Below are positions 10,034-46,680 of a stretch of 64,000 bases of DNA, in pieces; positions within the stretch are counted from its first letter, which is position 1; every line of letters starts with the position of its first letter. This stretch comes from Microthyrium microscopicum. Lineage: Eukaryota. Both the position numbers and the translations under genes were made by a program. The notes below the pieces were generated by a model. The model was not told where the DNA came from. It saw only the letters and a list, made by a program, of their open reading frames with translations, and made no database searches. The stretch spans positions 2,701,697-2,765,696 of the forward strand of contig MU004234.1 in NCBI GenBank assembly GCA_010405405.1, read 5' to 3'.

Positions 10034-12164
10034 AAATCTAGACTTAATTAAGCGGTTCTCCACATTATCTAGCATTACTACCACGTGGTCCGACTTTCTA
10101 ATTGCTTTAAGCGAACAGAATGGGAGATCTAGAATGATGATCCCTGCGAACGATTGTGGCGTGCAAAATTACCAGGTCCCTGAATACTATATCCTACCGC
10201 TGAGAAATAGGAGTTTATGGTTTGACCATGATCATTACGTACTTAATCTGGGGAAAGACAAGGATCAAGCTACAACTTCAAGGGACTTAATAATAAAGGC
10301 TGAGAATGGCAAGATTGGAAAATGATGAGGCTGAATCACCATCAGGCTGAAGATAATGCGTCGCCTTGGCAGCCTCATGTATAGTTATGATACGTTACCA
10401 AAAAAGATTAAAGAGTTATAAACGATGTAGGATTGGTCTACTTGAATGCCGCGACTAGCATAATTAAGCCACATTCCAGATAAGAAATTCGACGTCTTTC
10501 AACTTATACCTACCTTAACTGGCCTACCCTCATCAACTGCGATGGCTCCTATACAACACGCTCTGCTTTAAGTGCTTGATCTAACACATTGACCTTAGAA
10601 TCGCACATTTTATCAAATGTAATGGAAAGTATGACACCTTACAACCGGTAGCGTTCATGGGAGCCAGCGAAGCTGATAGGAGCACGGCATTTATTTTGTC
10701 GATCAGTTGAGCTGAGTTCTTAAAACTTTAAGGGCCCGTTCCCAACGAATATCGTATGTTCCACATCTCGTATCCTTCTAGTGGTGAGTGCGACTCCGGC
10801 AATGAAGACCTCGGCCTCCCTGACAACAGCTACATTGCTCACCATGAAAAAGTACAACTCTGCATGCTCTGTTCAAGCATCTTTGAGGACCCCAGCCAAA
10901 ACTTGATCCATCATTATTCAGCGAGGGAGGATCTATTGAGATCGTCTTCACATGCTCCTTGTGTCAAATATCGTCAATCTCACCCCAGTCAAGGTTTCTG
11001 ACGCCGCTCGTCACAATCCTTAGGCTCAAGTAGGAATCAAAGATGTTTCTCCTCTGAAAAGCATGACCTGCGCAAGATTATTGGTCCTGAGCTGCTCTTA
11101 TAGAACACAAATCTTGGGTGTCCTCATTTCTTGTTCTATATGCATGGAGCGAATTCTCCTTTTGACTATGACTCAAGACGACAACAACCACGACAAAAAG
11201 CTGGATTTATAAAGCACTGTCACCAATTATTTGACTGATTGCTACTGCGAAGCGCATGGGTGCAGTCATGAGCAAGAGCCAGGTGATTTTCGCGGGAAGA
11301 TGTGTCATATTTGAAGAAGGTATGATCACAGGAAGGTATTTGGTTGCTTTGATGGCGTTGCAAAGCAGGCCCTATATATAAGTAGATACCTGTCATAGCG
11401 GGCGATGGAAGTAGAAAAAGCAACAGCCTGATACATTTAAGAAAACCTGGTATATCGAGAAGATAGAAGCGGTCTGTAGCCTTCGATGTTGTCAACACAT
11501 GAGACGGAGGTAATCTCTAGTCGATATATCTCCTCCTCGGTCTAATCGACTGTACTTGTGGCTGGTATTTCCTAAAAGTGTACTGCGCCATCATTTTCTC
11601 TATTTCCCTCCCCCACAAATACGGTAGTCTGGAAGATTTAGCCTCATGGATTATACCGCATACACTCTCACGAACTTCATTCTATGGAGGTAATACTTAG
11701 AGAGCTCATTGTTCTTCGCAATGAGAGACTGTGAATAAATGGGAGAGTCCGCGAACAATACTCGACAGAAATGCTCGAATCTGCGATACACTCCTCTGTT
11801 TCCCATCAAAACTTAGAGATCTGCATTCTTTTATTAAGTCATTCCCATTTGATGAGCTCAAAAATGCTATACTCCTTCTGGTTTGGCGTTCCAAAATGTC
11901 TACCTTTGGTGAATTGAACTTCTGCGCACAACGTCGCATTATCATTCACGACGCCAAGAGCCTAACATCATTCACCGAACCCATTTCGCTGACTTGGCGA
12001 TGGATATCTATGAGGTATCAACTGCAGACTCCTTATCTTCGCTTTTCGTGACATTCTATTCATCCTTCTCTGTCATCAGCTCTATCCCATCCTTTATCTC
12101 CACCTTCTTATACGATTCAATTCCCGCATCAACTTCGCCAGCGATAACCTACAATTTCTCCATA

Positions 12165-15042
12165 ATGGTTGTCTGTAAGTTCTTCCGTAGAGGATTTTGC
12201 TTTCGAGGCGAAAACTGCCGCTACAAGCACGAAATTGACACCCTGAACACTGCCGGACCAGCGACCAGTGGAATCGCAACTCATTTAGAGAGCCTCGATA
12301 GGTATGTCTTTATGCTCCTTGTTCCTCATCTCTTTGTTTATACTGCGCCTTTTGTATCTCTCCCACAAAACTATATTGTACGCTCCTTGGCGCAAACTAA
12401 TTGAACCCCACAGAACCGACAAAGCAAACATCCCTTGCCGGTTCTTTGTCCGAGGAAACTGTAATCGTGGAGATAGATGTCTCTTCAGACATAGTCTGAG
12501 CCTTGATAATGCGCCTGTTCCGCAAAACTCCATACCCAATGAACGAACTCGCACTCATTGCCGGCGCTTTCCCCCGAGTGGATGCGCAGATGGCGATGAT
12601 TGCTCATCCATACACCAAGAAAACAATCTAGCGTGTCTTGGAGCGCAGCTCAAGGTTAGTCTCCTGCTGCTTAATTTTTATGAAAACAATTATGCTAAAC
12701 TCCTCGTGCACAGAATCATGACCGTGACAATTTCAGGCGCATCATTGCTGGCGCATTGGTTAAATTTGCAGACGCTGGCGGAGTAGAAGATATATCGCTG
12801 CCATCCGACTAAATCTTGATTCGTTTGTCACCTCTTCCAATCGATTCTACTTGTTCAACAGTTATCGCACTGTTAAAGGGAATTGACATTGTGCTTCCAG
12901 ATGCTTTGATTGAAATTTCTCAGGAGCGCAACACTCTCATCACCCAAGCCAAGATATATACAAAAGATTCCAGTCTAGCCAGCACTCTTCAGGTCACCGA
13001 TGGTATCCCACGTGAGCACGCCATTTCGGGTATGGCTCTCCGTTTCACGAAATTGCCCGTATATACTCTACCTGGAATGCGACTTAAGGGAATTGACAGT
13101 CGGAAGATTCAAATTTCATGGCGCAGCTCAACACGCACTGTTTGGCTAAGCTTCAAGCTTGAGTCGCAGGCAGTGCGTGTCTCTAAAAGATTCCAAGACG
13201 AAGTATATGACATAAAAGGATCGACGGTGAACGCAACTACAGGAGCCGAAGTGCTTAATCCTCACAAGCGCCCCAAATTGACCGTGGAATTGACCAATGT
13301 GCCAAATGACGCAGATCAATCTAGCATTAACGCTGCTATTTCAGAGGCAAACGACAAACCGAGTTACATTTCACTCGCTCGGCTCACCTACGATGCCACC
13401 TTCGAAGAGGTGGTATCGCTACTCGGTTTCAGACTCGCAAATTTCGGCGACGTTGTTGCCCTTGACAGTCTTGCAGCGCCATTGTCCAAGTATGCAAAGG
13501 TTAGAGCAACATTCAAGAGCAGTGCAGAAGCCTCTCTGGCAGCAGCCGCCTTGAACACTGAGCGTCAAAATTTTCTGGGCGGTGGCAAGCTCTCAGTCAA
13601 GATCGTGCATACTCTAAAAGCAAAAATACTCACTGCCACGTTTGACGTTCTCCGCAACCAACTGGAGTTTCTGGCATTCAGATTCTTCTTGTGGAATAAA
13701 GAGACCGCGCTCCACTTTCATCGCAACACTGATTTCTATCAACGACTTACCGCAATTCGCATTGAGGCTGCCAGTGCTAAAGGAGTCACTGAGGTCAATA
13801 TCGCTTTGCAAAAGATTCTCGGCGGAACGATTGCAAGAGATGCAGATAATTCTTTGCTGTGGCTTCCTCTATCGGACCAAAACGATTGGGCACTGCAAAA
13901 GGTTCGAAAGCTACAGAGCGACTTGCAAGTTAAGATTGTCCGCGATAACCGAAAGAAGCAACTTCACATATTGGGTCCACCAGAACAAATAGATGCTGCA
14001 GTTGCAGCACTGACGCGTATCATCAACGAAGAACGGTCTGAGCTGGGCAAAGCTACTATATCCAACATTAAGACATCCTCAAGCTCAGTGCAATCAAGCA
14101 AAAATGGAAACGAGGACTGCGTTATTTGTTGGTCTGGAGCTGAGGACCCAGTCACAACTTCTTGCGGGCATATATATTGCGAGGAATGCTTAGAAAATCT
14201 TTGCATGGAAGGGGATTTGGGTGACGCTTACACTGTAATCTGTCTGGGTGACTCAGGACAGTGTCAGAAGCCACTCGAACTAGAAGAACTTCACTCGATT
14301 CTACCATCAGTGGTGTTCAACGCCATGCTAGAGCATGCCTTCGACTCGAAGGTTCGGAAGAATCCAGACAGCTTTCATTACTGTCCCACACCAGACTGTG
14401 GCTTCGTATATCGGTCCACATCAACTGCTCATACTCATTGGTTGTAACAAGTGTCTTCAGTACATTTGCACGAGCTGCCATGATTCACATCCCAACAACT
14501 CATGTGCTGAGTTCCAATATATCAAGTCGGGGAGCCAGCAAGCTTTCGAGGAGTACAAGAAGGCCAACAATATGAAAGAGTGCCCGCGCTGTACTCTGAC
14601 AATGGAGAAAATTGATGGATGCAACCATATGTCCTGCCCATCATGTGGTGCTCACGTTTGTTGGGTCTGCTTGGATCATTTCGAAGCTGCCACAGAGTGC
14701 TACGATCATCTCATTGAGGTTCATGGACATATTGGCCTGGTGGATCATCCAGCCGAGGAGGTCATGCCTGACGAAGACTTTGCGCCAGACCAGATACCTG
14801 ATGAGGAGCTTTTCTTGAATTTCAATCTGGCTGGACGACATGCTGCTGGGGAGGATCTGGATATTCTTCTTGCACAGTGGAACCTTACAGATCTGCTTGC
14901 CACTGTAACCTTTGCTGCTCTCGGAATGACTGAGGAGGACATCACACTTTTGCGTGCCCTAGCGGCAAATCAGGCTGCCTTACAAGATGATGGCCTCGTC
15001 AACGACGAGGAAGCAGGAATGGATGCATATCAGCCTCAATAG
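12165..15042 (+). pseudogene. RBR (RING-IBR-RING, Ariadne-like) E3 ligase with 3 CCCH zinc fingers and an RRM/KH-like middle; disrupted
   Basis: ATG 12165; introns 12302-12413 and 12655-12713; three C-x7-C-x5-C-x3-H fingers. In-frame TAA at 12810-12812 where the paralog reads SDY. A +1 frameshift near 14440 falls inside the IBR (HTHW|CNKC). RING1 CVIC...CGHIYC..C; RING2 CPRC...EKIDGCNHMSC. Confidence 0.8.
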
Positions 15043-16191
15043 AGCTCCTCTTATAGTGCTATCGTGCGTCTTCGGCTACTTCTCTGCGCGTTGGTCGGCA
15101 GTATTCCAAGGGTTCAGAGGCTATCAACGATACAAAGAAAGCGACACGCTTGCCACTACCGCCACTAAACAAGAAATGCTGTGTTTCTCATCCTACTTGT
15201 AAGGGCATTAATATCGAATGCATTCTCTGAGGATTGGAGCTCTGGATAATACAAGAAGGCAGATAATGGATATTGTCCTGATACAGTAGCAAGTCGCTCG
15301 GTTTACTCCACCTTTGAGTTAAAATGCCCAAGATACCTAGGTACCTGTTAGATCAGGAAGCAGGACGATAGAGAATAAGATTAAAGATACAACAATCAAA
15401 TGAGCTGACCTCATCTGATCTTTTGCGGCCCAGTAAACAACTCTAGCTGGAAGTCACTCTTGGCGCGGTGCCAATGACGGACGGCGCAGACCAGGTTCCG
15501 TCCGGTACGCGGGCGAATACTGGACGGGGAGTGCCCGCGACTGGGTTAGGGGAAGACTATCTTTTATGAATAAAATGACGGCTGTGATTTTGGGGCGGGC
15601 GAACATTTCGGGCAAGATTAGGATGTGCTGCAGGAGAATCGTTTGGGGTTGAAGGACCATAAGGCTGAGAAATGCGGCTTTGACGACTAGTATATCTTGG
15701 CAGCCTCACCAGTACAGTGGAGCGATCAGAATAAAGTAAGTTCGGTATCAAAGGGGGTCAGAAAGCGGATGCGTTCTTACGAATTGCTTTATTGGTTGCC
15801 CATTCAGTAGATCGATAAGGAACATATTTTCATGGTGGAGTGGTGGCTTGAGAGTGAGAAACGCTCTTCGAGACCCGCCATCACTGCAGGGTTTTGAATG
15901 CCTCTAGCCGAAATGTTATAGGTGAATGCCGACAAATGAGAGCAAAGCTACCTCTACAAATGTTGGAGCTGTCAAGCCGGTGATTGAGGTGGTGCTGTGC
16001 TAACCTCTACAAGCTTGTGCTCCAGGGGCTGCGCTGCTTTTCGGTTTCTTCCTCTGTTAAATCTCGCTTCACCAGCGCTCGCGGTGTACCTTCAGTCTTT
16101 ATCCCCTCAAAGCTTTACCCATCCTCCAGCTTTGTCGTCATCATTCTAGTTCTTATCGTTTATTCACGGTCAGAGTGTTGAAACAATTGAT

Positions 16192-18518
16192 ATGACCGTT
16201 TGCAAATTCTTCAAGGCAGGTGAATGCAACAAGGTGAGATTTCCCCGTCAATTCCAATCTCTCAACAGAATTTTGGGCTCCATCCCATAGAATATGACGC
16301 TGATCAAGGATATGGTTACCGCTAGACGCAATTGCTTTGATTATAACGTTGTACTAACTAATTCCAGGGTCGCGACTGTCCATATCAACATCCAGAGCCA
16401 GGTCCAGTTACACGAGTCATAGATGGGGCTCTAGTGCAGTTTGCAAGTTCTGGCTCTGTTGAAGATGTCTCTTTCGCGTCTGATTACACTTCTTTTCATA
16501 TATCGAAGCTTCCGATCGACTCGACACCAGACACTATTGTGGAACTACTTCAATGCCTCGATTTATTGGTGAAGAAGTCTCATGTTCGAATATTCAAAGA
16601 TCAAGACACAATGGCTTTGCATGCAAACATCACCACAAAAGACCGTAGTTTGGCTTCGCTTCTTAAGGAAATCAACCACATTGAGGGCTTGAGGACGCTA
16701 TCGGATGCAGCTTTGGAAGTCAAGGAAGTAACTGTTTATAGTGTACCAGGAGGACAACTTCGGCGTATTGATAGCCGCAAAGTTCAGTGCTCGTGGCAAC
16801 GTCCAACTCGAGAAGTAATCTTGATATTTGGTCAACAGCAGATAGCAGACCGAGTGCGCCAAAAGTTTCAGGACAACGTCTATACAATACGAAGCGTCAA
16901 GGTATCCGTCGCTGAAGAGCCTCAAGAGATGCTAGCAAATCATCGCGAGCTGTACACAACACTTCGGCTACAGAATGTTCCCGTTGAAGCAGATCAAGAC
17001 GTTATCAAGGCTTCTATTCGTCACGTAGGAGATCAGCCGGACAACATCACACTGTTGGAGCCTTCTTACCGCAACAATTTCACAAAGGTCGTGGCAGCGC
17101 TTTCTGAGAAGTTCTCAGCTCTGGGTAATATTCGAGATGCCCATCCTCTTATGCAACTTCACGCACAACGATTCCAGATGCGAGTAACCTACTGCGACGA
17201 ACAACATGCTACAGTTGCAGCAAGACTCCTACAAGGTCAGATGCAGGAAGTCCTCGGTGGCGAGCCCATTGAAGTGAATGTCCTCCATTCAACGAAGTCC
17301 AAGGTTTGCACTGAAATTTTCGATGTTCTTACTACCCGGTTGGCACAGCTGAAGTCAGACCTCAAAGATATGGGCCTTGACGTCAATATATATCACTATC
17401 GCAATGCCGGCTATTTGAAGCGATTCACGACGCTGAAGATTGAGGGCGCTTCTATCAAAGCAGTCGCCTATACTGATGAACAGCTCCAAAAAATCATGCA
17501 AGGAGAGATTATGTGTGATCAAGATGGCAAAGCACTCTGGTGTCCCTCTTTGGAATACGAAAGCGGCACATTACGGCGAATTCAAGACCTTCAGACCCCG
17601 CTTGGCGTTAAGGTTATTCGCAAGAAGTATTCGAAACATCTTCAGATCTTCGGTCCGCTCGCCAATTGCAGCGAAGCATTACTTCTAGTGAAGACCATCG
17701 TGGAGGATGAATACCCTGAGAATAGTAGATCCGCTAAAATAGATGCGGATACTGAACTGGGCGAGAAGCCTGCAGAAAACGAGTGTCAAACCCAAAGTTG
17801 TGCAGTGTGCTGGACCGAGGCGGACACTCCAATAACTACATCTTGTGGCCATGTGTATTGTTTGGATTGTCTCGAAAACATGTGCAAGGCTGGAGACAGC
17901 GGCACTGACTTTGCAATTACTTGTCAAGGTGCAAGCGGCAATTGCGATCGACCTCTCCAATTGCCTGAGCTTCAATCGCTGTTGCAACCTTCAGTACTGG
18001 AAGATGTACTCAGGATATCCTTTCTGTCCTACATCAGCAAACATTCGAATGATTTCCACCATTGTCCCATAGCAGATTGCTCTGGGATCTATCGAGTAGC
18101 TTCTAAGCAGCTTATGCGTCGATGTGGAATTTGCTTGGAAGAACATTGCGCGATGTGCCATCATCAGCACCCAGACATATCTTGTGCGCAGTTCCGGGCC
18201 AATAATGCCGAAGACAAACAATTCGAAGAATTGAAAACTCAGATGGGTCTGCAAGATTGCCCAAACTGCTACATGACCATTGAGAAGTCTGATGGGTGCA
18301 ATCACATTACCTGCAAATGCGGGGCACATATATGCTGGGCTTGCTTGAAGCATTTCGAAACTTCAGGCGAGTGTTATGGCCATCTAAGAAAGGTACACGG
18401 AGGGTTTGGAATAGCGGCGGGCAACCACGAAGCCTATCATGGAGATGATGAAGAAGAAGAAGACGACGATGACTGGGTGTTCGGACTTTTCGACGATGAC
18501 GAGTTGGCGGCCATGTAG
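16192..18518 (+). CDS. RBR E3 ubiquitin ligase with N-terminal CCCH finger and RRM/KH-like region (paralog of 12165-15042)
   Basis: ATG 16192 MTVCKFFKAGECNK, intron 16234-16367, then GRDCPYQH in frame with the 694-aa ORF. RING1 CAVC..CGHVYCLDC, IBR CPIADC..CGIC..CAMC..H..C, RING2 CPNC..IEKSDGCNHITCKCGAHICWAC; acidic tail. Confidence 0.9.
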
Positions 18519-19097
18519 GAATCACGTCGCCCTGCGCCTTGTACCAAATTCGACAGCCATGATGAGATGTGTTGGCTCATAGCATACAGAACCTCCGTCG
18601 GACTTTGGACGGGAAATCAGGGGCTGGCGAGACTTATTGTTAGCACGAAGATTTTCAAGAATAAAAATATCGTCGGGCTCCAAATTATGGCCAATTAGTT
18701 CATGTCCGCAAAGTAGGCATTAATAGTCTGAGTAAAACGAAACTTGAATAGGCTAAATACGATATGGGCTGGGCAATTTGCCAATCATCAGTCAAACACT
18801 GCAGCTTTTCAGCTCACCAGGCTGTGGATTCGCCCTCATAATAAGCGGAAATCTTATGGAAATTGTAGGGCTTGATATAATGTGATATTTCAAGAGTAAA
18901 ACTTATGTATTGTGGGCAGTTGCTACAGGTAGAATGAATTTTTTCCGAGCTACTCAATGAAAACAACACGTTCCCCAACACCTAAGTGTCTAGATGGGTT
19001 ATCAATCTACAGATCTGGTCCATTACTAGGGCTAGCATTAAATAACCTTCGCTTAGGAACAATTACGGTCACCCTTCCTATCGCCAAACACGATTAT

Positions 19098-19359
19098 TTA
19101 CTTTGCCCATTGGGCCCACTGCAGCGTATACGAGCCGTCAGGATCCTGTCCTCCTTCAAGAGGAGGCTGAACTTGCAGACTCCATGCCAAGACGTTGACA
19201 CATTTTTTTCAAGGACCAAAAGTCTAATTCTGTTCATGAATTGAATTTTGTTGATCACAGGCCCAGCCTAATGTAGAGCTTGTGGCAATTAGCTGCGATG
19301 TTGTCTGGATCTTCGGGGTGTGTGCAATCCCGAAAGACTCGTCCACTATTCAAACACAT
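19098..19359 (-). pseudogene. Cys/His microprotein array member 1 (frameshift + 2 stops)
   Basis: MCLNSGRVFRDCTHPEDPDNIAANCHKLYIRLG, then after a 1-nt shift CDQQNSIHEQN*TFGP*KKCVNVLAWSLQVQPPLEGGQDPDGSYTLQWAQWAK. The stops fall where family members have the conserved W and C; the tail aligns with member 2. Confidence 0.75.
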
Positions 19360-19654
19360 CCTTATAAGGATAAGACCAGACGAGGCTGTTTGACATGTTA
19401 AGAAATTCAAAGAATAAACGAAGGGCTGGGTAATACAGGTAGTTTGGACATTACAGTCGGGGATGATGGAGACGTTGCATTTATAGAACATAGTTCAAAG
19501 TGATAGGAAAGCAGTTCTATCTAGAAGTCGCCTGTTGTGGCTTGAAAGCATTGGCTCCCATCAACAATTCAAGATAGTACTCTAGTGACTGAAAGAGCAT
19601 GTATTTCCTGTCAATTGGACTGTTACCGCCCTTAATGTCACTTGGTATGGGAGC

Positions 19655-19849
19655 TCAACGCGGCCACAGTCTCCACTTCAACGAATATGAGCCGTTGAAA
19701 TTAGGATCCAGTCCTCCCTCAATAGGGGGTCCAACGCCCATATTCCACCGGTAAACGCCAATACATTTTGGGCGGCATTGTAATGCGATATCCAGTTCAT
19801 CTTCTGGATGTCCGCAAGCCTGGAAGACTTTCCCATTATTCTTACACAT
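19655..19849 (-). CDS. Cys/His microprotein array member 2 (internally shortened, 64 aa)
   Basis: MCKNNGKVFQACGHPEDELDIALQCRPKCIGVYRWNMGVGPPIEGG... lacks the central segment seen in member 1. TATAAA on the minus strand at 19968-19973. Confidence 0.65.
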   Translation of the reverse strand: MCKNNGKVFQACGHPEDELDIALQCRPKCIGVYRWNMGVGPPIEGGLDPNFNGSYSLKWRLWPR

Positions 19850-20224
19850 TTACTGTATTGTTAACCTTTAAAACGTTCCCTGCCTTCCTTATAATCAACT
19901 GAGTAATGATAAAAGAATCGGTACGGAAAATGAAGCGACCTAGTAAGGGAGGGCAGACAAATTGGTATTTATAAATATGGATGGCTATGAGTACAACTAA
20001 GATTGTTAAACAATGATTACCTATAGTAAGTAGTTAATCTAACATTTCAGAGAGTATAGATGACTTTTGAACATAACTGGACAAATTTGCAAGTAAAGTG
20101 AGTGAGCTTTCACTAGGATGTACCACCCTCTCCATGAGCAATAGGCCGAAATGTCTGATTTTAAATGTTTAGCTGTTTTTACAAACACTGAACAACCAGT
20201 TATCATCAGCCAGTCCGAAAATCT

Positions 20225-20434
20225 TTACAAAAGAAACAATACATTATCCGGGTACGTCAGATTCCACGTTGCTAAACAGTTTCCACAATATCCTGGAATC
20301 CAGTTCTGATCAGTCAGTGGTGTAACCTTTGCACAGATCTCTCCTGAAGCCCAGTAGTCGGAGCAGTAATAGGCAATATCATGAGCATTCTCTGGGTGGC
20401 AACAGCGGTAAACTCGTCCGCGATGCTTACACTT
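20225..20434 (-). pseudogene. Cys/His microprotein array member 3 (AAG in place of the start ATG)
   Basis: Open 69-codon frame [K]CKHRGRVYRCCHPENAHDIAYYCSDYWASGEICAKVTPLTDQNWIPGYCGNCLATWNLTYPDNVLFLL. An in-frame TAG lies 12 codons upstream with no ATG in between. Not in the ORF track. Confidence 0.75.
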
Positions 20435-21083
20435 TTTGATATGGATGAAGTGAAGGTAGACAAAACGCTAATGCGATCTGCTGTATTCAGACAGTGTGTA
20501 TGTGAATATGATTGAGACGTAGATTCAGATGGCTGCCATCTGACTATTTGTAGTTTGGCAATCTGGTGATATTCACTTTCGTGGATATCTATATTAACTA
20601 ATCACTTTTTACTTAAACAGCTTTGAAGAACAGGAAGTTGCTGTGACGGTAGGCAAAGAATCACCCTAAATACTACTAAACAAAAAATGTTCTATTGTTA
20701 CATTCCCTGGCCAGTTCTGCCTCAGAGGCCATAGCAAATTTCCTCTCCAAGGTAAGAACGGTTGATGAGGGTCTTTTGACCATTTTTGCGAATAACATCC
20801 TATCTTGGGTTATACTAGCAGAAGTGGCGTTCTCCCGTCAGCTATGGTGGCTGCCATCGTGCATTATAACAAGATGGTACTGTGTTTCCCAGCATATTCG
20901 AGGCAATCACAGTTCAGTGGGCCATTGATAGTCAAGCTGATTAACATGCACCTTTGCTTAGCTTCCCGAGCCGGCACCTGAGATGTGGTTAAGTCATGAG
21001 TTGGCAGGATAGGTGGTCTCATTAGAAATGAGACTGTTATGGCTTATGATAAGGCTGATCAGAAGGAAGAGTTACATTCGCTA

Positions 21084-21329
21084 TCAAAGAAAATAATCTC
21101 CAGTCTCATCAGCCGGATCTACTCCAGCGTTCCAGCCCTGTACCTGAATACAATGCGGACAATACCCCTGAATCCAAGCATTCCAGTCTGCGGGGTGGAC
21201 TTGCGCACAAACATGACCAATTTGCTTTGCTAATGGACATATCGTACAAAGCTTCTCATCAGCTAGTTCTTGTGGATAACTTTCCCAGTGGCGACAGCCA
21301 CGCCACACTCTGCTGTAAACTAAGCACAT
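21084..21329 (-). CDS. Cys/His microprotein array member 4 (81 aa)
   Basis: MCLVYSRVWRGCRHWE...LCTICPLAKQIGHVCAQV...WIQGYCPHC. TATATAA on the minus strand at 21453-21459. Confidence 0.8.
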   Translation of the reverse strand: MCLVYSRVWRGCRHWESYPQELADEKLCTICPLAKQIGHVCAQVHPADWNAWIQGYCPHCIQVQGWNAGVDPADETGDYFL

Positions 21330-21724
21330 ATCATAGGTAGAGCCTAGTATTCACCAGAGATCGGTAGGTTGTAGGTGTACTTCAGCAATTGCTTGATATG
21401 TTGGATTTATGAAGGATAAAGAGAATGGCGTCTATCATTTAGATTCCTTTAATTATATACTACGATGTAGATAATCGATGATGGATAAATGCAATAGTGA
21501 GAGCCCCCATTACTGACTAAAAGTAACGTATGATGTCTTCACATATTGGAAATGAACTAGTAACGCAAGATTTTGGACTCAGATATATAACAAGAGGGTA
21601 CAAAATAAGACCCGAAGGTTACAGTGAGGGTCTAGGCATTGGATACACGAAAGCCATGAAGAAAAAGGAAACCCAGAAGAGCGGTTTACATTATTGGAAG
21701 CGCCAAAATTCGTCCCTATATTAT

Positions 21725-21943
21725 CTAAAGTAAAGACAGGAAGCTATTGGACTGCATCAGAACACAATATGGGCATATCCCCTCAAGCCAATGATCGTTT
21801 CCCACTGGTATAACTTTTGAACATGGACGACCAGCTCGCCAGGCCTGCGAACAAACATCGTGACAGTGTATGCCCTCTAATTTGCGCGGATGTCCTTCCG
21901 GGTGGCTGCAGCCACGATACACCTTTGCCCAGACGGTACACAT
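21725..21943 (-). CDS. Cys/His microprotein array member 5 (72 aa)
   Basis: MCTVWAKVYRGCSHPE...HCHDVCSQAWRAGRPCSKV...WLEGICPYC. TATAAA on the minus strand at 22061-22066. Confidence 0.8.
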   Translation of the reverse strand: MCTVWAKVYRGCSHPEGHPRKLEGIHCHDVCSQAWRAGRPCSKVIPVGNDHWLEGICPYCVLMQSNSFLSLL

Positions 21944-22323
21944 CTTGGCCGGGACTATCGTCTAGTGGGTTGATGTTATAAAGCTCAAATTACCAAATCG
22001 GTGTAATATTGGTTGGATTTCAGACAAGATGTGAGACAATTGGTTCCTACCGCCTGAATATTTATACGCCAGTATCTACATCACTGCATATATGAATGAC
22101 AGGGCCGCCATCTGAACAACTGAATGGCTCGGAGACACAACTATCAACGAAAAGCCTGAGCATATCCTTGCATATCCTTGCATATCATCACTATAACTAC
22201 CCAAAGTCGTTCCCACTCTCAGAAGCCCAGGACCCATTTATCTAATCCAGTGGAAAGGTCTAAACTGATCAGACTACTCACTACATACTCTAGAGTGTTT
22301 TCCAACACTTCCATTCTTATCTA

Positions 22324-22554
22324 TCATTCTGCTTGTACAACATCATTGTTTTTCCAGAAATCTCTCAAAATACAACAGCGGGGACAAAGCTCGTCAAGCC
22401 ACCGGTGCTCATGCCATGATTCCGCTTTCATATAATACTCGCCCGTTTCGAGCGCTGTTGAACAGGGCGTGTGGATGGATCGAGGGTATCAAGGGTAGGA
22501 AAGTTGAATATGGTGTTTACACTCCCCATGGACTACATTCCAAACTTTATACAT
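22324..22554 (-). pseudogene. Cys/His microprotein array member 6 (internal TGA)
   Basis: MYKVWNVVHGECKHHIQLSYP*YPRSIHTPCSTALETGEYYMKAESWHEHRWLDELCPRCC..., with TGA at 22489-22491. Shares RSIHTPC and WLDxLC with member 7; two family Cys positions read Tyr (TAT). Confidence 0.75.
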
Positions 22555-22686
22555 ACTGCGTGGTAGGTATGGACGGACAAGTTTGTGTTGAATAAGTGTA
22601 AATTGGGTTGATATTGAGAATGAGGACTACGAATCAGATTGTGAGAACTGTACTATATACACCACACAGTCTCCAAATTTCTACCA

Positions 22687-22941
22687 CTAGCCTATATTAC
22701 TACCCAACGGCGGAAAGTCATCTTCATTCCAAGTGCCATCCTTCTTAGCATTCTCTTCATCGCAGCCTGCACAGAGCCCATCGAGCCATATGCTTTCATT
22801 GTATGGCTGCACTTTTAGACAATGCCGTCTCCTTTGAGAAGCTATATGGCAAGGTGTGTGGATACTGCGGACAAAGCCAGGCAAGAAAAGTAGGCCATCA
22901 TATTGACAGTCACTATGGATTAGGTTTGAAACTATATACAT
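22687..22941 (-). CDS. Cys/His microprotein array member 7 (84 aa)
   Basis: MYIVSNLIHSDCQY...RSIHTPCHIASQRRRHCLKVQP...WLDGLCAGC. The N-terminal C and H ligand positions are degenerate. Confidence 0.7.
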   Translation of the reverse strand: MYIVSNLIHSDCQYDGLLFLPGFVRSIHTPCHIASQRRRHCLKVQPYNESIWLDGLCAGCDEENAKKDGTWNEDDFPPLGSNIG

Positions 22942-23140
22942 GTTGATTTGTTGGGAAGATTGGTGCTAGATACGAACTGAGTTGGGTTGTTCTTAAACGG
23001 ATGAAATATTTGTGGGGTTGCTATCTAGGCATAAATGGTAATGTAATGTGAGGGTAGTAGTGTTTGTAGTTGATGGTTTAAATTAACTTCATCAAAGAAT
23101 AACTAACCGTTTGCTGGATCACCACCATCAGTGAATCTGC

Positions 23141-23395
23141 CTAGACAGCTCTCCTAAGATATTCACTCTCAGTAGTGGCAATGAACTTCTTGATACCAAG
23201 ACACCAATCACATTTCCCATCCAGCCACTTGCCCTCTCCATATACACTTGGTTCCTCCGGTTCAGCTCTCGCACAATGCCTCGCCGTCTTTTTCGCGCTC
23301 TCACAGAGTTTCCAGCAAAGTTCGTGGGCTGGTATTTCAGGATATAGTTCCGGGTGACCGCAGTCGCGATGGATGGGTAGGATGCTAGTACACAT
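23141..23395 (-). CDS. Cys/His microprotein array member 8 (84 aa)
   Basis: MCTSILPIHRDCGHPELYPE...LCWKLCESAKKTARHCARAEP...WLDGKCDWC. Confidence 0.8.
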   Translation of the reverse strand: MCTSILPIHRDCGHPELYPEIPAHELCWKLCESAKKTARHCARAEPEEPSVYGEGKWLDGKCDWCLGIKKFIATTESEYLRRAV

Positions 23396-24043
23396 CAAGA
23401 CCTCCGCAGAGAGAAATCAGAAATGCATATGATAGATTCTTATAAATGTGGTTGAGTGAGATGTTGGATTATAAATGTAGTGTATGGGCATTTAATGTGG
23501 GACCGTGAGAAATGGGATATTTTTCAAGCCATGATATAAATTCCAGCAAGGTTATTTGTTATGTATGTGATGTAAAGGTGCAGTAAACACGATGTCTGCG
23601 ATAACATGACGGCAAGGTAAAACGAGACAGTCTGATAAGGGGCACTTATGACAATACTAGCAGTTTTGGTGCTTTGAACAACATTCTCTAGTCACTGGAA
23701 CATTGTAATTATTACAAGTGTGGACGAAGGTATCTCAAAAGATAAAGATACTAACAAACTTAATCATAGCGGCTGAGACACTGCGCTTATATGGCCAACA
23801 ACAAACATCATCAAAGCCACATCATAAGCCAGAGGATGCCACGAATCCAGCTGTGTGCTCAAACTAAGGGTGAGACTTATGACAAGATCAAGTTTAGGAG
23901 CCCAAAGTCACTAGTTTCCATTGTGCATTGGTCGGGATGTAATCAATCACAGGTTAAGTTCATCGTTATTATCAAATTCCATTATATTTGCTTGTATGTG
24001 ACAACTTCCTCTTGCTCTTTCCATTCTACTGCCGCTACCAAGC

Positions 24044-24436
24044 TTACATTTTACAAACAGTACTGATAAGCGATTTGATGCTCGCTTGATCTCCTGCAGC
24101 TGGACAGGCCGTTGGTATACATTCTTTGATGGCCGACTGAGTTTCTGCCGCCTTACAAAAGCAGTCCACGTCTAACGATAGAATAAGAACTCGAATCAGT
24201 GACAATTCTCTCTGGAGAATACTTACCTATGCCGCATTTGCCAGTGACTTTGGTAACGATAGTAGTTGCGCAAGAAAAAGCACTTGATCCAGTTAGCGAT
24301 TGCTGGCCTGCACCGAATATGGTAATTCTTACCAAGTAGGAACCTTGTATTGGCTCAACTGGCCCATAATATCGCTGGCTTGGGGGTGGGCGACGACTAG
24401 GCCTGCAATCGAAAGGATGACAACAGAGAGCTTCAT
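24044..24436 (-). CDS. small secreted CFEM-domain protein (95 aa, 8 Cys)
   Basis: Exons 24333-24436, 24227-24282 and 24044-24171 (introns GTAAGA..GCTAAC..AAG and GTAAGT..TAG) give MKLSVVILSIAGLVVAHPQASDIMGQLSQYKVPTCAFSCATTIVTKVTGKCGIDVDCFCKAAETQSAIKECIPTACPAAGDQASIKSLISTVCKM. CFEM spacing PxCAxxC...C..DxxCxC...CxxxxC...C. Confidence 0.88.
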
Positions 24437-25680
24437 GGTGACAGAATTGAAAGAAAGGTGATCTGGATTCGGCGGTCAAGTCAAGGTGTTATGCCTCTGA
24501 TTTTCATTATTTGCATTGGGATCATGGCTTTTCTTATAGCAGAAGATCTTTCGGATTTTTTAGTTCGAATGTTGATACAAGTTTCATGTCGCCGTTGAGC
24601 ACGTAGAGTTTGAAGGGCGATAAAGCAAGGCAAATTAAACCGGAGTAGCGCTATTATCAAGTCGCGACCTCTTCAAACGTGGAAGAACATTTTCATGCTT
24701 CGTCTAATAGTGCTACAGTGTAATTCGGTGTAGAATGTAACCAGTGCTGAAAGATCATGTGGGAAAACTTTAACGATAAATGGGCTTTAGTATATCGAGG
24801 GTACGTGTGACCTATTCGCCCTAGTCGTTCCAAGCTGATATCTTCTCTAGATATAATCACTAACCCGTTCTTCCGTATATCACTGCCAGTCCTAGTCTAT
24901 TATGTCCTGCAATGGCAAGACTGTTTGGTTCTAAAAGATCAGTGAGCCAACTTGCCATTAACTCTGCTCCTTCCGGGTCACATTGCGCTGATATCTGGGA
25001 GTTGATTTACACTTATGCTTCCAAATTTGCCATCTGTATGGACACTGTTGCACCTTCTCCTTCCCACGGGTAGAAAATAGCACAAATAGAACACTACCTC
25101 CTAGTTCGTGGCGCGATTTACCTCATATAGGGTGCTAGTGTCAAACTCAATTATATAAATAATTGAGAACCCTACTACCCGCAGATTGTCATGAGAACCA
25201 ACAGCCCGTTATACCACCGGATTATACGCCAGTCACAAAGCTGCACGCTGAAAGAGGGCACAGAGTTAAATGCTAATGCCAGGGATAGCTTTGTAGACAG
25301 TCAGTATCTTAAAGTCTGAGAGCAATGTAGTAAAGCCACTCCTACGTGTATTACTTAATGAGTACGATCATATGGATGATTTGGTGAAAACTGTCGGTCG
25401 AGTAGCGTCTTTGGCTCGTGTAGAACAAGATTTTTTCTGACATCAGGAAATGAAGAGAAGTGAACCCTGAGGAGTTGTTTTTAAGTCGTGGAAGCTTTGA
25501 TAAAATATACTTCGATGTAAGTCCGCTGAGTATCGAGAACACATCATTAAACTTTCACAGAAGGACTAGAGGGTCTATGATGTCTACTGCTTGAGACCAA
25601 CTTATCCTCACACAATCCTTCACATTTCGATCGATCAGGGACGCTTTGGAGTGGTTATTAAGCTCATTAGATATGAATCA

Positions 25681-27309
25681 CTAGTGTAACATTGTCCCAC
25701 TAGGAAGACTGTAAACCTGACTATCCAATTCGTCTCCGCAAACGACGACAAACGGATAGGTGTTGTATAGACATTTCTTCGCTTTCGTGGCGTGGTTGAC
25801 CAGATTGCCAGACTTGTAGTATGCCCAGAGTTGTTTCTTGTCCTCAGGATTACAACCTACCATGCTCACACCTCCATCTGCTTTAAGACAAAGCGAGGGG
25901 GCTGACAGTGGACTTATGAGACCTTGAGAAGAAACCCCCCAAACCTGAGAATCTGTACCCGCGCAGTCCTGAAAAAGGATGCTTGCTGCAATATGAGTCA
26001 TACATTTACGAGTAGCTGAGTTGAATATCATGCCCGTTGGAGTCGCAGTTGGGACCTTGAAGAATCGATACATGGCGGTGGCATGGCCAGGAAGCTCGAT
26101 GGCAATGACGGTTGTGACAGTTTGATTGGAGCCTGTCCAGAGATCTTTGACGGTGTATTTGCCATCTCTTGTCAATCCAACCCTTTCGACGTTTATACTA
26201 GTCGAGGCGGTTTTGTTGCTGCGATTGAGCACTGTGAGCAATCGATCTCCACCTGCTAAGTTCTTGGTCAAAACATCCCAGTTCCCATCTTGGCTAACCA
26301 GAGTTGCTTGTAGTGCCAGAGGATCTTGATCGATAGCGATGATATCTTTGTTAGTCAGATAGGTAATTTCTTTAGGTGAAAGATCCTGGACATTTGCGCT
26401 GATGATCAAAGGGGCAGAAAAGGCGGACCATAAAGCGAATTGCGATTTCTTCTCTTCCAGTGTCAACCATGGCCAATCAGCAATGATAAAATCGGGATCG
26501 TTGTAGAATCCAGGCTGCTGATATCTAGCCAAAAGGACGTTATGCGCGTAATTGTTCATGATGCTTTTCCAATATTCGGTAGGCTCGTAGAGACCAAAAA
26601 CATCAATATCATTTGAATGTCTTGCAAGTTCTCCGTAGAGAGGCGCCCATGCCATCACTCTGTACCAATCCGATTCATTGTTTTGCTTTGGAAAATCTGA
26701 ATCACCAGAGAAGTATGCTGGCGCTGATTCCGAGAAGACCATAGGTTTGGACAAGTTTGACAGGACATCATGCCAACGACCATAGATAACTTGATAAGTT
26801 TGCTGTAAAGTTTTTCCTTTATACGGATCGACATTGCATCCATCAAGTTTAAGATAGTTTATTCCCCAGCTGGAGAATGTCTGCGCGTCGGTGGCTTCGT
26901 AGCCGAGTGAGCCTGGGTACCCTCCGCAGGTTTTGTTCCCAGCATCTTCATAGATACCAAAGTGAAATCCTTTCGACTTGACATAATTTACAAGCCATGG
27001 AATGCCTTGCGGGAAGAGAGTGGTATTCCATTGCAACAGGCCTTGATCGCTTCGGGAGGTTTGCATCCAGCAATCATCTAGATTCAGACGATTATAGCCA
27101 GCTGCGAGTAGGCCTTTGCTGACCATCGCATCCGCGGTAGTTGTAAATAGAGATTCATTCAGTCCACATTGAAAGCGTGCCCAATTATTAAATCCCATTG
27201 GTGGGGTTGGAGAAACGAGGGGGTTGGTGATAGATCCATGAACTAGGCGAAGAGCTGTAGTAACAAGGAAGGCCAGGAAAAATGCCAAAGAGTGATTGAT
27301 GATGGCCAT
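25681..27309 (-). CDS. secreted GH27 alpha-galactosidase / alpha-N-acetylgalactosaminidase with C-terminal ricin-B (CBM13) domain
   Basis: Signal peptide; TPPMGFNNW, NLDDCW, TCGGYPGS, YLKLDGC (nucleophile), YNDPDF; C-terminal QxW repeats (SQVW, KQLW). Intronless. Confidence 0.95.
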   Translation of the reverse strand: MAIINHSLAFFLAFLVTTALRLVHGSITNPLVSPTPPMGFNNWARFQCGLNESLFTTTADAMVSKGLLAAGYNRLNLDDCWMQTSRSDQGLLQWNTTLFPQGIPWLVNYVKSKGFHFGIYEDAGNKTCGGYPGSLGYEATDAQTFSSWGINYLKLDGCNVDPYKGKTLQQTYQVIYGRWHDVLSNLSKPMVFSESAPAYFSGDSDFPKQNNESDWYRVMAWAPLYGELARHSNDIDVFGLYEPTEYWKSIMNNYAHNVLLARYQQPGFYNDPDFIIADWPWLTLEEKKSQFALWSAFSAPLIISANVQDLSPKEITYLTNKDIIAIDQDPLALQATLVSQDGNWDVLTKNLAGGDRLLTVLNRSNKTASTSINVERVGLTRDGKYTVKDLWTGSNQTVTTVIAIELPGHATAMYRFFKVPTATPTGMIFNSATRKCMTHIAASILFQDCAGTDSQVWGVSSQGLISPLSAPSLCLKADGGVSMVGCNPEDKKQLWAYYKSGNLVNHATKAKKCLYNTYPFVVVCGDELDSQVYSLPSGTMLH

Positions 27310-28171
27310 TGCATTTCATAGACCTACGGGACTGGTCAAAGGGCTGTCAAGCTTGAAACTCCCGTGGTGTTGAAGTTGACGACCAGTTGTCTTCTGCTAC
27401 ACAGGTAGTTGCCAGTTGGATCTTGAATTCTCTGACTCTAATCAATATTTAGAGTGGGTCAAAGCTTGCTATAATGAGTTGTGAGTAACATTATTATGTT
27501 ACCCTAGTATTATTTAAGCGGAAATAGGCTGGATCCTTTCTACCGATGATGGTCATTTTCTTATCCAATAAGATTCTTCTGGATATAGTACTTTCGTGTA
27601 TACGCGAAAAATGTCCGTCGATTATGCAAAACCATTTTATGTGGATGTATTCATACTAATAAATTTCAATTGTGCGTACGAAAAGAACAGTGTGCGCTCA
27701 GATCAAATGCCAAATACAGTACTTACTGACCCTTGAGTTCTGTTCAGCCGGATTGATAAAGGTGGCCGAAAAGAACTAATTCGTGTTGAAAAATTGTTGT
27801 GTAACGCTTTACTTCTTCAATATCGGTCGGATGTAGGCTTCATGTCAATCGGGACCTATGAAAACAGTATTGCAGCGAATTAAGGCCGATTTGCCTGATA
27901 CCGCCAGTTTGAACTTGGTGTGAGCGATTGGTCAAGTTCTACTGCCATAACATATCTTGATCAATAGTTGAAGATAAACAGACTGTCAAACGATGGTTAA
28001 AAATGTCATATATACCGAACATTGATCTTTGTTGCTCAAGTTCACAGGTATGAGTTTCAAGAATCAACCGTTTTCAATCCAAATCTTTACATCCACATCA
28101 TAAATCAAAAGTCACTATCCCTGCCGTTTCAAAACTGCCCGGAGTCCCCTAGGGGCCAGCAATACTAGAAA

Positions 28172-29347: not shown

Positions 29348-30508
29348 TACTCTCTATACTAATACGACGCTGAATGGCACCAACCATAGTAAAAAGGAAG
29401 TTAACAGTACATAGATCAGAGTGGTGAAAAAAAAATTGCTAATAATATTGGAACACGAGAGATGACAAACTATATCGGCATATAATCAACAAAGTGTTCG
29501 AGCGTAGACAACCGAAACATCATACGTTCTAATCAAACCAGCAGCATTTGCCTGGTACCCTTCACAAGAATTGTTCCTAAGTGCAGTTGCAGTTGCACAA
29601 GCAAAAGCTAAAATCATTCCGGCATTGACAGCACTCAAAGAGGGTTTCTCAAATCGCATTCTGGAGACGCCAGTTAAACGACGAGTTGAACAAAACAATT
29701 AGTAAGATGAATGAGAACCTGGCTTTGAAGACACTTGCCCAGGAACCAATTTCGATAGACTCTGGGGGTGTATCTATTTACATTCATGTTTACAGTACTA
29801 CCAAAGTGTCTATTATCATAAAGAGACGGGCGTTATTGAAGTAAGCTCAACAGAGCCTGATCGACGGCCATCACATACACCTCAATGTATGTTTTCTAGT
29901 TATCCTTTCTCTCGTTATTTCTTAATTGGGGTTGATCAAATTTGGCAGCTCAAAGGGGGTGATGCTGGAGGGGGATAATGAGAGCCGCATGGTTGGGGCA
30001 GCCAAACAGCAGAAGACTTCCCAATTGGGCAGATCACAAGTCTATCACGGCCCGCCATGACGGTTTTTTGGTGGTTGACGCCACTTTCTTGATGGGATCT
30101 GCATAATTCCCGATGGTGCATCAAACCTTCAGGTTGAATCAGTCCTCGAGAGTCGAGAAGGTTGTTACTGAGCTCAGTAATGAATTCAATCTCTTCGCGG
30201 CAGTTGATTTTTTGGTTGTTCATGGCAAATTAAGTATGTGTTCCTCGTTTAGATGGGCATTTACTGGTTAAGCCAAAGAAATTGAAATAGGCTTAGTGTT
30301 ATCTTGGTAGCCTCCATCGCCCCTCAATAATAATACGATACGGTGCTCTACTCAACACCGTTGGCTACCACCGTTGTGCGTGGAAAATTCTTGCGTTTTG
30401 TCTCTGGCCAACCATCTCTTGTGGTTCTATCAACTCCGTCAACTTTCCCATCAATTGTTTCTGCATGTTTCTATACCCATTCTCAGCCTCGATTTGTCAG
30501 CAAGAAGG

Positions 30509-33500
30509 ATGCCTATTATTGATACCACCAAAGACTTGAATTGTCTCTTCAATCTTCAAGTTCAGGCTTCGCCTGATGCCATTGCTCTTGAGGACGAGAC
30601 CACAATATTGACATATGCTCAATTGGATGTCAAGGTCACCTCACTCGCTACACATCTGCGTACATTTGGAGTTGGACGAGACTCTTTAGTTGGAGTGCTT
30701 TTGTCTCGCAGCGCTGATTATGTGATTGCTTGTCTTGCCGCTCTCCGAGCTGGCGGCGCCTTTCTTGTCCTAGAGCTTGCCTACCCTCCCAGCTTGTTGG
30801 CCGATGTCATTGATGACGCTAAACCAGCGGTTATCGTAACTCATACTGCCCATGCTAGCCAGATCACTTCTACCACACCCCTGATTGTTCTCCAGGATCA
30901 TGTCAGTGGATTAGATTGGTTCCCTCCCAACAATGAGCCTCACAATTCATCAGCTCTGCCGGCTGATGATGACTTGGACCGGCTTGCCTTTGCTTCATAT
31001 TCATCTGGTACAACTGGCCGACCCAAAGGAATTGCGAATCCTCATCGAGCGGCTGTATTGTCGTATGATTTGAGATTTGGAGTCAACGATCTCGGTCCTG
31101 GCGACCGCGTCGCTTGTAACGTGTTTTTTGTTTGGGAAATTTTGCGACCTCTACTTAGAGGAGCAACAGTAGTTGTCGTACCTGACGAGACTAGCTATGA
31201 CACAATTGCTTTGGTAGAGCTATTGTCTTCTCGACGTGTAACGGAAACTCTTATGACTCCAACATTGCTTGCTGCTGTTCTCGCCAGACATCCTGACATT
31301 GGCAACCTTCTTCCAGATCTACGAACTTTGTGGTTTAATGGCGAAGTAGTCACTACAGATCTTGTTCGCCGCGCTATGAAGTCTCTTCCAAAAGCTCGTC
31401 TCCTCAATTGCTACAGCGCAAGTGAGACTCATGAAATTGCCTGCGGAGATATTCGAGATATGCTTGATACATCGGTACCCTATTGTCCGGTTGGTCCACC
31501 TTTGGACCCGAAACATGCATACATATTGAGTGATGAGGGTAAAAGAGTTGCGGATGGAGTCAGTGGGGAGTTGTTTGTCGGAGGGCCTCTTTTGGCTCGC
31601 GGATACATCAATCTACCGGAAACTACTGCAGCAGCTTTCTTGCCTGATCCTTTCGACACCTCACCTGGAGCTCGCATGTATAGGACTGGAGATACTGGGC
31701 GAATATTACCGACTGGAATCCTAGAGATTACTGGACGTGTAGGGTCTATGATAAAGATTCGAGGATATTCTGTTGTTCCTGGTAAAATCGAGCGTGCAAT
31801 TGTAGAGCACTTTGCTGTCAGTAATTGCGTCGTGATTGCTGTTGGTGATGGGCTCGATCGTCAATTGGTAGCTTATATCGTTCACGACAAGCAAGAACAA
31901 GATGAGCGTACTCAACTCGAGATCGATGACACAGGATTTAGTCCAATCGCACGTGGAGTGTTAACATCGTCGTTGGCACAATACATGATACCAGCATTTT
32001 GGGTACCAATGGACGAGCTTCCCACCCACGAAGTTTCCGGAAAGGTTGATTTAAATCGGCTGCCATCTCCAACATCGACCAAATCACGAAGCGCAACAAT
32101 GCAGAACGGCAAAGGACTACAACGAGATACGAATGTCAACACAAAGACCATTGCGGAACTTTGGGCAGCTTCTTTGAGTCTTTCAGCTAACTCCATCATC
32201 TCAAAAACGGACCCCAACTTCTTTGACCTCGGAGGCCATAGTTTATTGTTGGCAAATCTTGCTAGTAGAATGACTACGTATTTCGGCTTTTCAGTGCCTC
32301 TAGCTCGTCTAGCAGGTATGCCGACTCTTGAGGGACATCTGCAGGTTGTGATATCTGCTCGCGATGGCCACACATCCTCAGTACAAGCTAATCTGCCTGC
32401 AATTTTGAAAGCAGACTCGGTTCTTCCAGCAGAGTTCAAGCCTGTGCAAGCGGCATTTTGTCCTATTCGCAAAGCAGAGACAATTTTCCTGACAGGTGCA
32501 ACTGGATTTCTTGGTGGAGTGCTTCTTCAAGAGCTTTTGGAAGCAACTCAAGCTCGTATTATCTGCCTTGTACGCTTTACTGACCCGTCTGAGGGTGGTA
32601 GTGCCCCAGGAATGGCTAGAATTCGTCGAAACCTCTTGGACCTTGGCCTCTGGAAAGACTGGATGCCAAATCGCATCGAGATTCTTGGTGGGAACTTATC
32701 TCTGAAACGAATGGGGCTTTCCGCCACAGACTTTGAGAAGATATCTAAGCGTATTCATGTGATTATACATGCTGGGGCTACCGTCAATCTCGTTTATCCA
32801 TATGCTGCACTGAAAGCCGCAAATGTTGACGGTACCAAGGAAATTCTACGACTTGCTTGCGCCGGCGGTTCTACATTACAATATGTATCGACAAACAGCG
32901 TCTTGCCACCATCAACGGAAGGCTGGTCCGAGGATACAGCAATTGATATTGCCACTGTCTCAGACAAACTCATCGATGGTTACAGTCAGACCAAATGGGT
33001 AGCCGAAGAACTTATCCATGAAGCTGCTCGCCGTGGATTACCCGTAGGTATTCTAAGACCAGGCACAATAAGTGGTCATAGTAGCTCCGGTACGACCAAC
33101 ACATATGATTTACTCAACGCAATTATTGTAGAGTCTCTTCATATTGGCCATCATCCAGATATTCCCGGCTGGAAAGCAGAAATGACACCAGTTGATTTTG
33201 TATGCAAGGCCATTGTCACACTTGCAGATCAACAACAATCAAGCCAGCACATATATCACCTCAGCGAGCCGCATCCCATTGAGATGGCAGCTCTCTTTGC
33301 TATTTTAAATGGCATGGGCTATGGAACTAAACCATTAGCTTGGGATGAGTGGATTGACTTATGGAATGATTCGCGAGGCTCTATCAAAGGTGGCGAAGGA
33401 GCATTTACCGTTGATATTATTCGCGGTGGTGTCCCAACAGCGGAATTTTTGAGGTGCATTACTCTGCTCAACGATACCGGTACAATAGCGGCTCTTGGGA

Positions 33501-46561: not shown

Positions 46562-46680
46562 AGAAAGACACCAATCACTTTCCCTTCTTAAAGTTTGCGA
46601 ATAAAGGTGTGTAGGAAGCGCAGCGCATTTGATACCTTTATAAAGTTTAAGAGATCCAGAACTTACAAGGCCCATGGAAG

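Follow-up and report, generated by a model that had tools for sequence, protein, structure and literature searches.

The stretch considered here, 64,000 nucleotides from the fungus Microthyrium microscopicum (GenBank assembly GCA_010405405.1, contig MU004234.1, C5 below, positions 2,701,697 to 2,765,696; the whole of it is called the window), carries between positions 19,098 and 23,395 a tandem array of eight units belonging to a family of Cys/His microproteins. The window is fungal in its spliceosomal introns, its gene content and its AT-rich blocks of the type left by repeat-induced point mutation (RIP), and some 55 kb separate the array from the end of the 2,777,148-bp contig. An earlier note on this DNA had described eight co-oriented, intronless units, and all eight are found: named m1 to m8 from left to right (positions are window coordinates unless a contig is given), they stand head-to-tail on the minus strand, are 64-87 codons long, start at 19359, 19849, 20434, 21329, 21943, 22554, 22941 and 23395, and are spaced 387-895 bp from start to start. 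A ninth unit was sought with profiles over all six frames of the window, and none came to light. The window has four instances of the full protein motif (m3, m4, m5 and m8) and 100 shuffles have none; the ATG-anchored DNA form of the motif occurs three times as against none in 100 dinucleotide shuffles.

Only three of the eight units are complete, with ATG, open frame and all ligands; the other five are damaged, a point that the earlier note missed. The complete ones, each with seven of seven ligands, are m4 (21084..21329, 81 aa, with an extra Cys28 and a TATA-like box on the same strand at 21454..21459, or -130), m5 (21725..21943, 72 aa, extra Cys27, minus-strand TATA box at 22061..22066, -123) and m8 (23141..23395, 84 aa, extra Cys27). 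Among the damaged units, m1 (19098..19359, minus-strand TATA box at 19480..19485, -126) keeps an intact M-C-x9-C-x-H head and is then broken by a frameshift near 19260 and by two minus-strand stops, TAG at 19224-19226 (the Trp position) and TGA at 19209-19211 (a Cys position). Its neighbour m2 (19655..19849, minus-strand TATA box at 19968..19973, -124) is a 64-aa open frame with five of the seven ligands; an internal deletion leaves it 73 nt shorter than m1 and without the C..W-x-x-G-x-C segment. The 69 codons of m3 (20225..20434) hold all seven ligands, but AAG takes the place of the start codon and the TATA pattern is not matched, so that m3 is probably either a pseudogene or a gene with a non-AUG start. 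Both m6 and m7 begin M-Y and have five of seven ligands: m6 (22324..22554, minus-strand TATA-like box at 22654..22659, -105) is interrupted by TGA at codon 22 (22489-22491) and is without two Cys, and m7 (22687..22941) is an open frame of 84 aa with Tyr both at Cys2 and at the His of C-x-H. Read-through of the stops in m1 and m6, or another genetic code, was rejected, because the stops are both TGA and TAG, fall at positions aligned with Gly, Cys and Trp, and in m1 are accompanied by the frameshift. Several of the ligand-destroying changes in m1, m6 and m7 (Cys to Tyr, Trp to stop, His to Tyr) are RIP-type transitions in CpA context; such changes fall in the two closest paralogue pairs, and the remaining breaks are not of RIP type. 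A contig of run X3 covering 18492-24601 shows no difference from the window, of which that run may itself be the source, and run X5 offers four short, low-depth, identical pieces with adapter-like ends.

Two pairs of units are close relatives. In m1 and m2, which are recent sisters, alignment extends across promoter, open frame and 3' flank, and the duplicated unit is thus about 0.5 kb long and includes its own promoter. The sisters m6 and m7 pair at 94/90 in a tree of 21 members in which 0 of 18 branches are starred, so that neither the order of duplication nor monophyly of the arrays can be read from it. In the public gene model P0001, m8 is annotated as the last exon of a chimera, also missed in the earlier note, which joins its codons 5-84 to residues 1-94 of a small secreted CFEM protein; the CFEM gene itself (24044..24436, minus strand, about 95 aa, two introns of about 50 nt) ends in an in-frame TAA at 24044-24046.

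The core shared by the whole family, M-C-x8/9-C-x-H..C-x9-C..C-x2-C, comprises six Cys and one His, that is, seven conserved ligands rather than the eight or so first proposed. The copies of the window array and their closest relatives (W-type) have the fuller form M-C-x8/9-C-x-H-x(10-20)-C-x9-C-x(8-15)-W-x2-3-G-x-C-x2-C, in which, over nine copies, four Cys and the Trp are invariant and Cys2 (7/9), the His (8/9), the middle Cys (8/9) and the Gly (8/9) nearly so; besides Trp and Gly, Pro, Ala, Val and Arg are also conserved. In the consensus drawn from the window alone, the C-x3-C is optional and the P-E after the His is not kept outside the array; an additional Cys before the third ligand occurs in just three window copies, as C-x3-C in m5 and m8 and as C-x2-C in m4. 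Overall the copies are 19-37% identical, with 4-7 Cys in 64-84 aa, and variable His and Cys occur beyond the seven conserved ligands. Sixteen copies were found by searches that did not require M-C, and every one of them has its first ligand position at codon 2 (13 M-C, 2 M-Y and one AAG-C). One dispersed member has Cys at the His position of C-x-H, and this exchange, together with the C-x-H and C-x2-C spacing, favours metal binding as judged from sequence.

The family recurs elsewhere in the genome, which had escaped the earlier note: two further arrays and dispersed copies were recovered in the same genome and no usable homologue outside it. At least 23 copies are present (8 + 3 + 4 + 8 dispersed). 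The second array (C5:443,808-445,565, plus strand) borders a RIP block of 7 kb and consists of three W-type genes, all intact; about 11 kb from it lies a gene with weak matches to PigL_N (HeLo-like) and ankyrin. The third (C3:1,135,796-1,138,131, plus strand), just downstream of an SMI1/KNR4 (SUKH) gene, has four copies of a C-x8-C-G-H type, of which one is truncated and the other three are intact. The head pattern M-C-x8-C-G has 71 matches in the genome as against 49 in the control, and of the 21 that were picked by eye and fetched, seven aligned as dispersed members, seven formed a separate group on contig C17, one 151-aa frame on C9 was left out, and six ended early at an intron or a truncation; one more dispersed member came from a separate genome search. 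Further heads of this pattern, in frames ending after 16-54 codons, are possibly intron-containing family members. The tail pattern W-[hydrophobic]-x-G-x-C-x2-C has 38 matches (16 in the control), and among the 30 inspected the family members are only the seven in the two C5 arrays. A profile of the window copies matches a profile built from 11 non-window members, seven of them chosen by head pattern and eye, with an hhalign probability of 95 and E of 1.7e-8, and a hidden Markov model (HMM) built without the window copies recovers m5, m8, m3, m7 and m4 at E 2e-5 to 6e-4, above all decoys (5117 segments). The window array represents a W-x-x-G-x-C-x2-C branch of a larger fungal family that has no name. 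The C17 group was not counted in it, as only its head matches (hhalign E 0.014, probability 3). It is an array in its own right (C17:64,684-69,803, plus strand) of six tandem intronless genes for proteins of 131-157 aa, with an invariant M-C-x8-C-G-C..C..C-P..C-x4-H (seven Cys/His), no Pfam match, TATA in 4/6 and A at -3 in 6/6, and with a seventh relative at C17:121 kb.

That the units form a real gene family is almost certain. Across the nine W-type copies, aligned under protein guidance, the pooled proportion of nonsynonymous differences (pN) is 0.52 and that of synonymous differences (pS) 0.71, near saturation; Cys codons alternate between TGT and TGC, and the family residues are kept through synonymous codons. 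In a drift control (substitutions only) run to 65-75% identity, all seven ligands were kept in 0.03-0.6% of 3000 runs, and ATG plus frame in 3-6%. Promoters and start contexts were compared for 24 starts drawn from the window array, the other family arrays and the C17 array, with three others added. Of these starts 19 have A at -3, whereas among 290 other ATGs 31% do (p 2e-6), and 13 have TATA at -95 to -155, an interval chosen after seeing the data, as against a background of 7% (p 2e-9). In the window array alone both figures are 5/8, and TATA[AT]A stands at -123 to -130 for m1, m2, m4 and m5 and at -105 for m6, so that the claim of TATA boxes for several units holds. Near-saturated synonymous sites, kept ligands and the enrichment of TATA and of A at -3 together identify the units as old, selected genes under birth and death, which bears out purifying selection on the ligands. 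Transposon debris, which the earlier note had weighed as a possible undoing of its proposal, was rejected: the array DNA (18900-23600) has one match in the genome, itself, its RIP substrate index is 1.28 as against 0.08-0.13 in nearby AT blocks, and no Pfam family of transposable elements matches. Contigs of run X6, guessed to be RNA, fall on the alpha-galactosidase gene and on pieces of an RBR (RING-IBR-RING) gene; that the array and the CFEM gene have none is evidence neither way.

No named family had been recognised for the units, and none emerges from wider searches with 19 members in Pfam (best E 0.019), NCBIfam (0.051) or PHROGs (no match), nor from PDB sequences (best E 0.53). None of the five open frames occurs in a collection of 15 billion proteins, where the neighbouring alpha-galactosidase is present. 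A five-member HMM against 1.84 billion representatives gave three matches, the chimera P0001 and two repetitive false ones, in a search where a short profile needs about 40 bits and absence is thus not proven. Word-index searches with alignments of 5, 8 and 19 members yielded 9, 31 and 45 candidates, none of which passed; a DNA-pattern scan gave five metagenome matches, all TG/CA microsatellite false positives, and no viral one; phage tblastn and Rfam gave no match. For m4, the best three of 30 ESM Atlas look-alikes (0.90-0.91) are unnamed fungal clusters of 73-84 aa, 100% eukaryote, most commonly Basidiomycota or Ascomycota and with no common Pfam, a lead only and weak evidence at a recognition of 1945, below the tool's mark of 2300; for m5 there is no named cluster. 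The literature searched, with subscription papers and supplements largely outside it, holds no account of the family, and the Neurospora gene lists in such supplements could include members.

The intact proteins are predicted to form one compact beta/alpha domain unlike solved folds. The check by AlphaFold and Foldseek that the earlier note had suggested gave a confident model and no fold match: AlphaFold2 modelled m5 from 19 sequences with a predicted local distance difference test score (pLDDT) of 86.6 and a predicted template modelling score of 0.71 (five models, 75-87), with short strands at 2-4, 27-29 and 44-46, helices at 32-37 and 58-70, and a well-ordered N-terminus, residues 1-10 having a pLDDT of 94, the best after 51-60. 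For this model Foldseek searches of the PDB and of a viral library gave no match at E<=0.001 (in the latter nothing under E 3.9), and VIA-align matched none of 48,161 PDB representatives at Z>=2, although a missing fold match does not prove a new fold. An earlier AlphaFold run on m4 with eight sequences reached a pLDDT of 61.6, also with no fold match.

The proteins are probably cytosolic or nuclear and not DNA-binding. The absence of a signal peptide is borne out by a hydropathy scan, with no signal-like stretch in any of 21 members and a 9-residue maximum of 0.06-2.09 as against 2.84 and 3.07 in two secreted controls; this, together with a net charge of -4 to +3 in the array copies and no basic DNA-binding patch, suggests the localisation. 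Fingers of the RING, PHD and FYVE type are small domains stapled by Cys and His and are usually protein-binding modules. The C-x-H and the terminal C-x2-C of this family resemble theirs, whereas its seven ligands, its lack of an N-terminal C-x2-C and its stand-alone proteins starting M-C do not. A RING finger proper (C3HC4 or C3H2C3) was rejected, as ligand number and spacing differ and none of 19 members matches the RING model, while the neighbouring RBR genes do. Fold comparison gave no match to the RING cross-brace at E<=0.001 or Z>=2, which does not prove that the fold is another one. A Zn2Cys6 (Gal4-type) cluster was rejected likewise, on spacing, the lack of basic residues and the lack of a Pfam match, and CFEM because PF05730 matches only residues 31-94 of P0001 and no unit. 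For treble clefs and zinc ribbons the only matches, at E 0.16-0.2, are to two dispersed members, with no fold match. Fungal metallothioneins are tiny, intracellular and Cys-dependent, and are sometimes found in tandem; this family has far fewer Cys (4-7 in 64-84 aa), an aromatic/hydrophobic core with a Trp invariant in W-type copies, a predicted fold and dissimilar copies, and membership among them was rejected.

A zinc-stabilised intracellular domain is a likely reading of these data, and the two-zinc intracellular module originally proposed survives in its lack of secretion, its variable loops on a fixed Cys/His scaffold and its favoured metal binding, though not in its eight ligands. With seven side-chain ligands, a two-zinc site needs a bridging thiolate, an N-terminal amine or a partner; the portions of PMC11672702 at hand contain no seven-ligand site that could serve as a precedent. 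Where Cys follows the initiator Met, methionine aminopeptidase cleaves the Met off. A Cys at codon 2 would thus leave a free amine beside its thiol, a candidate eighth ligand that we regard as possible, with the balance somewhat against it. The fuller model that we propose tentatively, as something a little short of an even chance, runs as follows. Local duplication of a promoter-plus-frame unit of about 0.5 kb creates new copies, which diverge and often die, and this much is shown by the array. The proteins would remain intracellular and hold two Zn2+ with their six Cys and single His; the eighth ligand would most probably be the alpha-amine that loss of Met exposes on Cys2, with a bridging thiolate as the alternative, and the metal core would free the loops to vary. 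In what is the weakest step, the proteins would act, when induced, by binding other proteins as inhibitors, adaptors or decoys, and the array would serve as a diversifying repertoire for encounters with non-self, antagonists or stress, its copies being lost once their target is gone. TATA-type promoters in fungi mark inducible genes. A metal core under variable loops, promoters of this kind, gene loss and surroundings of RIP blocks and RBR, CFEM and SUKH genes point, circumstantially, to such diversifying modules, and a binding role in conflict or stress is accordingly a tentative suggestion, somewhat below even. A bolder version, a fungus-wide and largely unannotated superfamily of two-zinc microproteins with an undescribed fold and Cys2 amine ligation, whose hypervariable tandem arrays would form an inducible recognition or inhibitor repertoire inside the cell, a kind of fungal innate immunity, and possibly feed targets to the neighbouring CCCH-RBR E3 ligases, seems improbable.

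Several observations weigh against this model of zinc-stapled, diversifying binding modules. The pN value is lowered by the use of a protein-guided alignment; constraint on recent copies is weak, m1 and m2 differing with dN 0.39 and dS 0.67 (dN/dS about 0.6) on 60 codons; and the frames of m2 and m7 stay open with only five of seven ligands. The low identity may reflect age and relaxed loops rather than positive selection. The start context is imperfect, with T at -3 in m2 and m8 and an out-of-frame ATG just upstream of m4; choosing members by head pattern and eye inflates the hhalign match; and the six Cys could equally make three disulfides. The second array adjoins a glycosidase-like gene, and the argument from neighbourhood is circumstantial.

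Metal buffers, chaperones or thiol-redox sensors, induced by stress, holding Zn or Cu through Cys and His and needing no partner, with duplication raising dosage, would account for the seven conserved ligands and the extra variable ones, for the TATA-type promoters and for the open frames of m2 and m7 with fewer ligands. This alternative is unlikely, as the few Cys, the conserved Trp, Gly, Pro, Ala, Val and Arg and the predicted folded domain are unlike metallothioneins, and selection for dosage favours similar copies rather than ones as dissimilar as these. Developmental regulators specific to a stage (spore, fruiting body or cell fusion), acting as zinc-binding adaptors on self targets, find their model in Neurospora, whose lineage-specific genes, in the portions of the main texts at hand, lie in subtelomeric clusters together with HET-domain genes and where small duplications can escape RIP (PMC10684091, PMC11628664). 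Like them, the units are short, dissimilar paralogues near a chromosome end in a RIP fungus, near genes of non-self-recognition type, and the Neurospora clusters of young paralogues include homologous triplets, one knockout of which arrests perithecia (PMC10684091, in part). Those genes are, unlike this protein family, a genomic class, and the likeness is not based on sequence: 515 of 670 have introns, their mean length is about 192 aa, and the same portions of both main texts mention neither zinc nor cysteine (PMC10684091, PMC11628664). Since, moreover, a sexual phenotype appeared in only three of 367 knockouts (PMC10684091, in part) and five damaged copies out of eight fit dispensability, a developmental role looks improbable.

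That the proteins are effectors or antimicrobial peptides held by disulfides and exported with no signal peptide is very unlikely. Small secreted Cys-rich effectors do share the size, the Cys skeleton (here six Cys), the hypervariable loops and fast turnover by birth and death near repeats, and the subtelomeric site and CFEM neighbour suit them too; the family differs in having no signal-like stretch and in its conserved His and metal-type spacing, the His of C-x-H and its replacement by Cys in a dispersed member fitting metal ligation. Leaderless proteins are also made in the reducing cytosol, which counts against disulfides. Very improbable, too, is that the units are mostly dead relics of an old family decaying in place, with residual function at most: the damage to five window copies, the dN/dS of m1 and m2 and the absence of the five open frames from the protein collection would suit it, whereas the window, C5 and C3 arrays each retain three complete copies, which have preserved ligands, Kozak context and TATA although the synonymous distance between copies is near saturation. 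Splicing of the units as alternative last exons onto the upstream secreted CFEM gene, as P0001 has it with a donor (GTAAGC) of good consensus, is extremely unlikely, as five units have their own TATA and no CFEM-like frame stands beside the other two arrays, and the fusion is probably an artefact of gene prediction because its intron of about 660 nt (the other two have about 50) has no branch-site match (RCTRAY) near the acceptor, the in-frame TAA that ends the CFEM frame at that point is skipped, and the conserved Cys2 is lost.

Other features of the window may be noted. Directly adjoining the array, and convergent with it, are two tandem plus-strand genes ending in RBR E3 ligase domains (about 12,160-15,042 and about 16,000-18,518), combining RNA binding with ubiquitin ligase; CCCH zinc fingers and a weak KH match are present in the first, and the long frame of the second opens with a CCCH-like end. 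On the other side, a 2.6-kb contig of run X6 (depth 287) covers 24,805-27,380, over the GH27 alpha-galactosidase and about 880 nt past its stop. Judging by sequence, we take 30,311-34,372 (plus strand) to be a 1353-aa gene like those for nonribosomal peptide synthetases, reading adenylation-carrier-reductase-reductase, while 5,880-8,400 (minus strand) is presumably a cellobiose-dehydrogenase-like gene and 9,200-10,030 (plus strand) presumably a divergent, stand-alone cytochrome-domain-like one. The region from 46,500 to 64,000 contains AT-rich blocks of RIP type, with a GC content of about 0.2 and, at 48-52 and 60-64 kb, a substrate index of 0.08-0.13. Degraded frames resembling retroelements lie in this region at 55.9-56.1 and 60.5-60.8 kb, there is a gap of N near 62 kb, and an island richer in GC at 52-54 kb holds a 226-aa low-complexity frame.

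The array thus belongs to a gene family that annotation has overlooked and left mostly unannotated, and if its members were only metal buffers or relics, the value of the finding would shrink to a correction of that annotation. With its seven-ligand scaffold, its obligatory codon-2 Cys and a confident model lacking a PDB match, the family is an inexpensive target for structural work and may prove to have a new zinc fold. Were the arrays indeed recognition repertoires, they would add a small intracellular class to the fungal non-self response, beside NLR (NOD-like receptor) and HET proteins.

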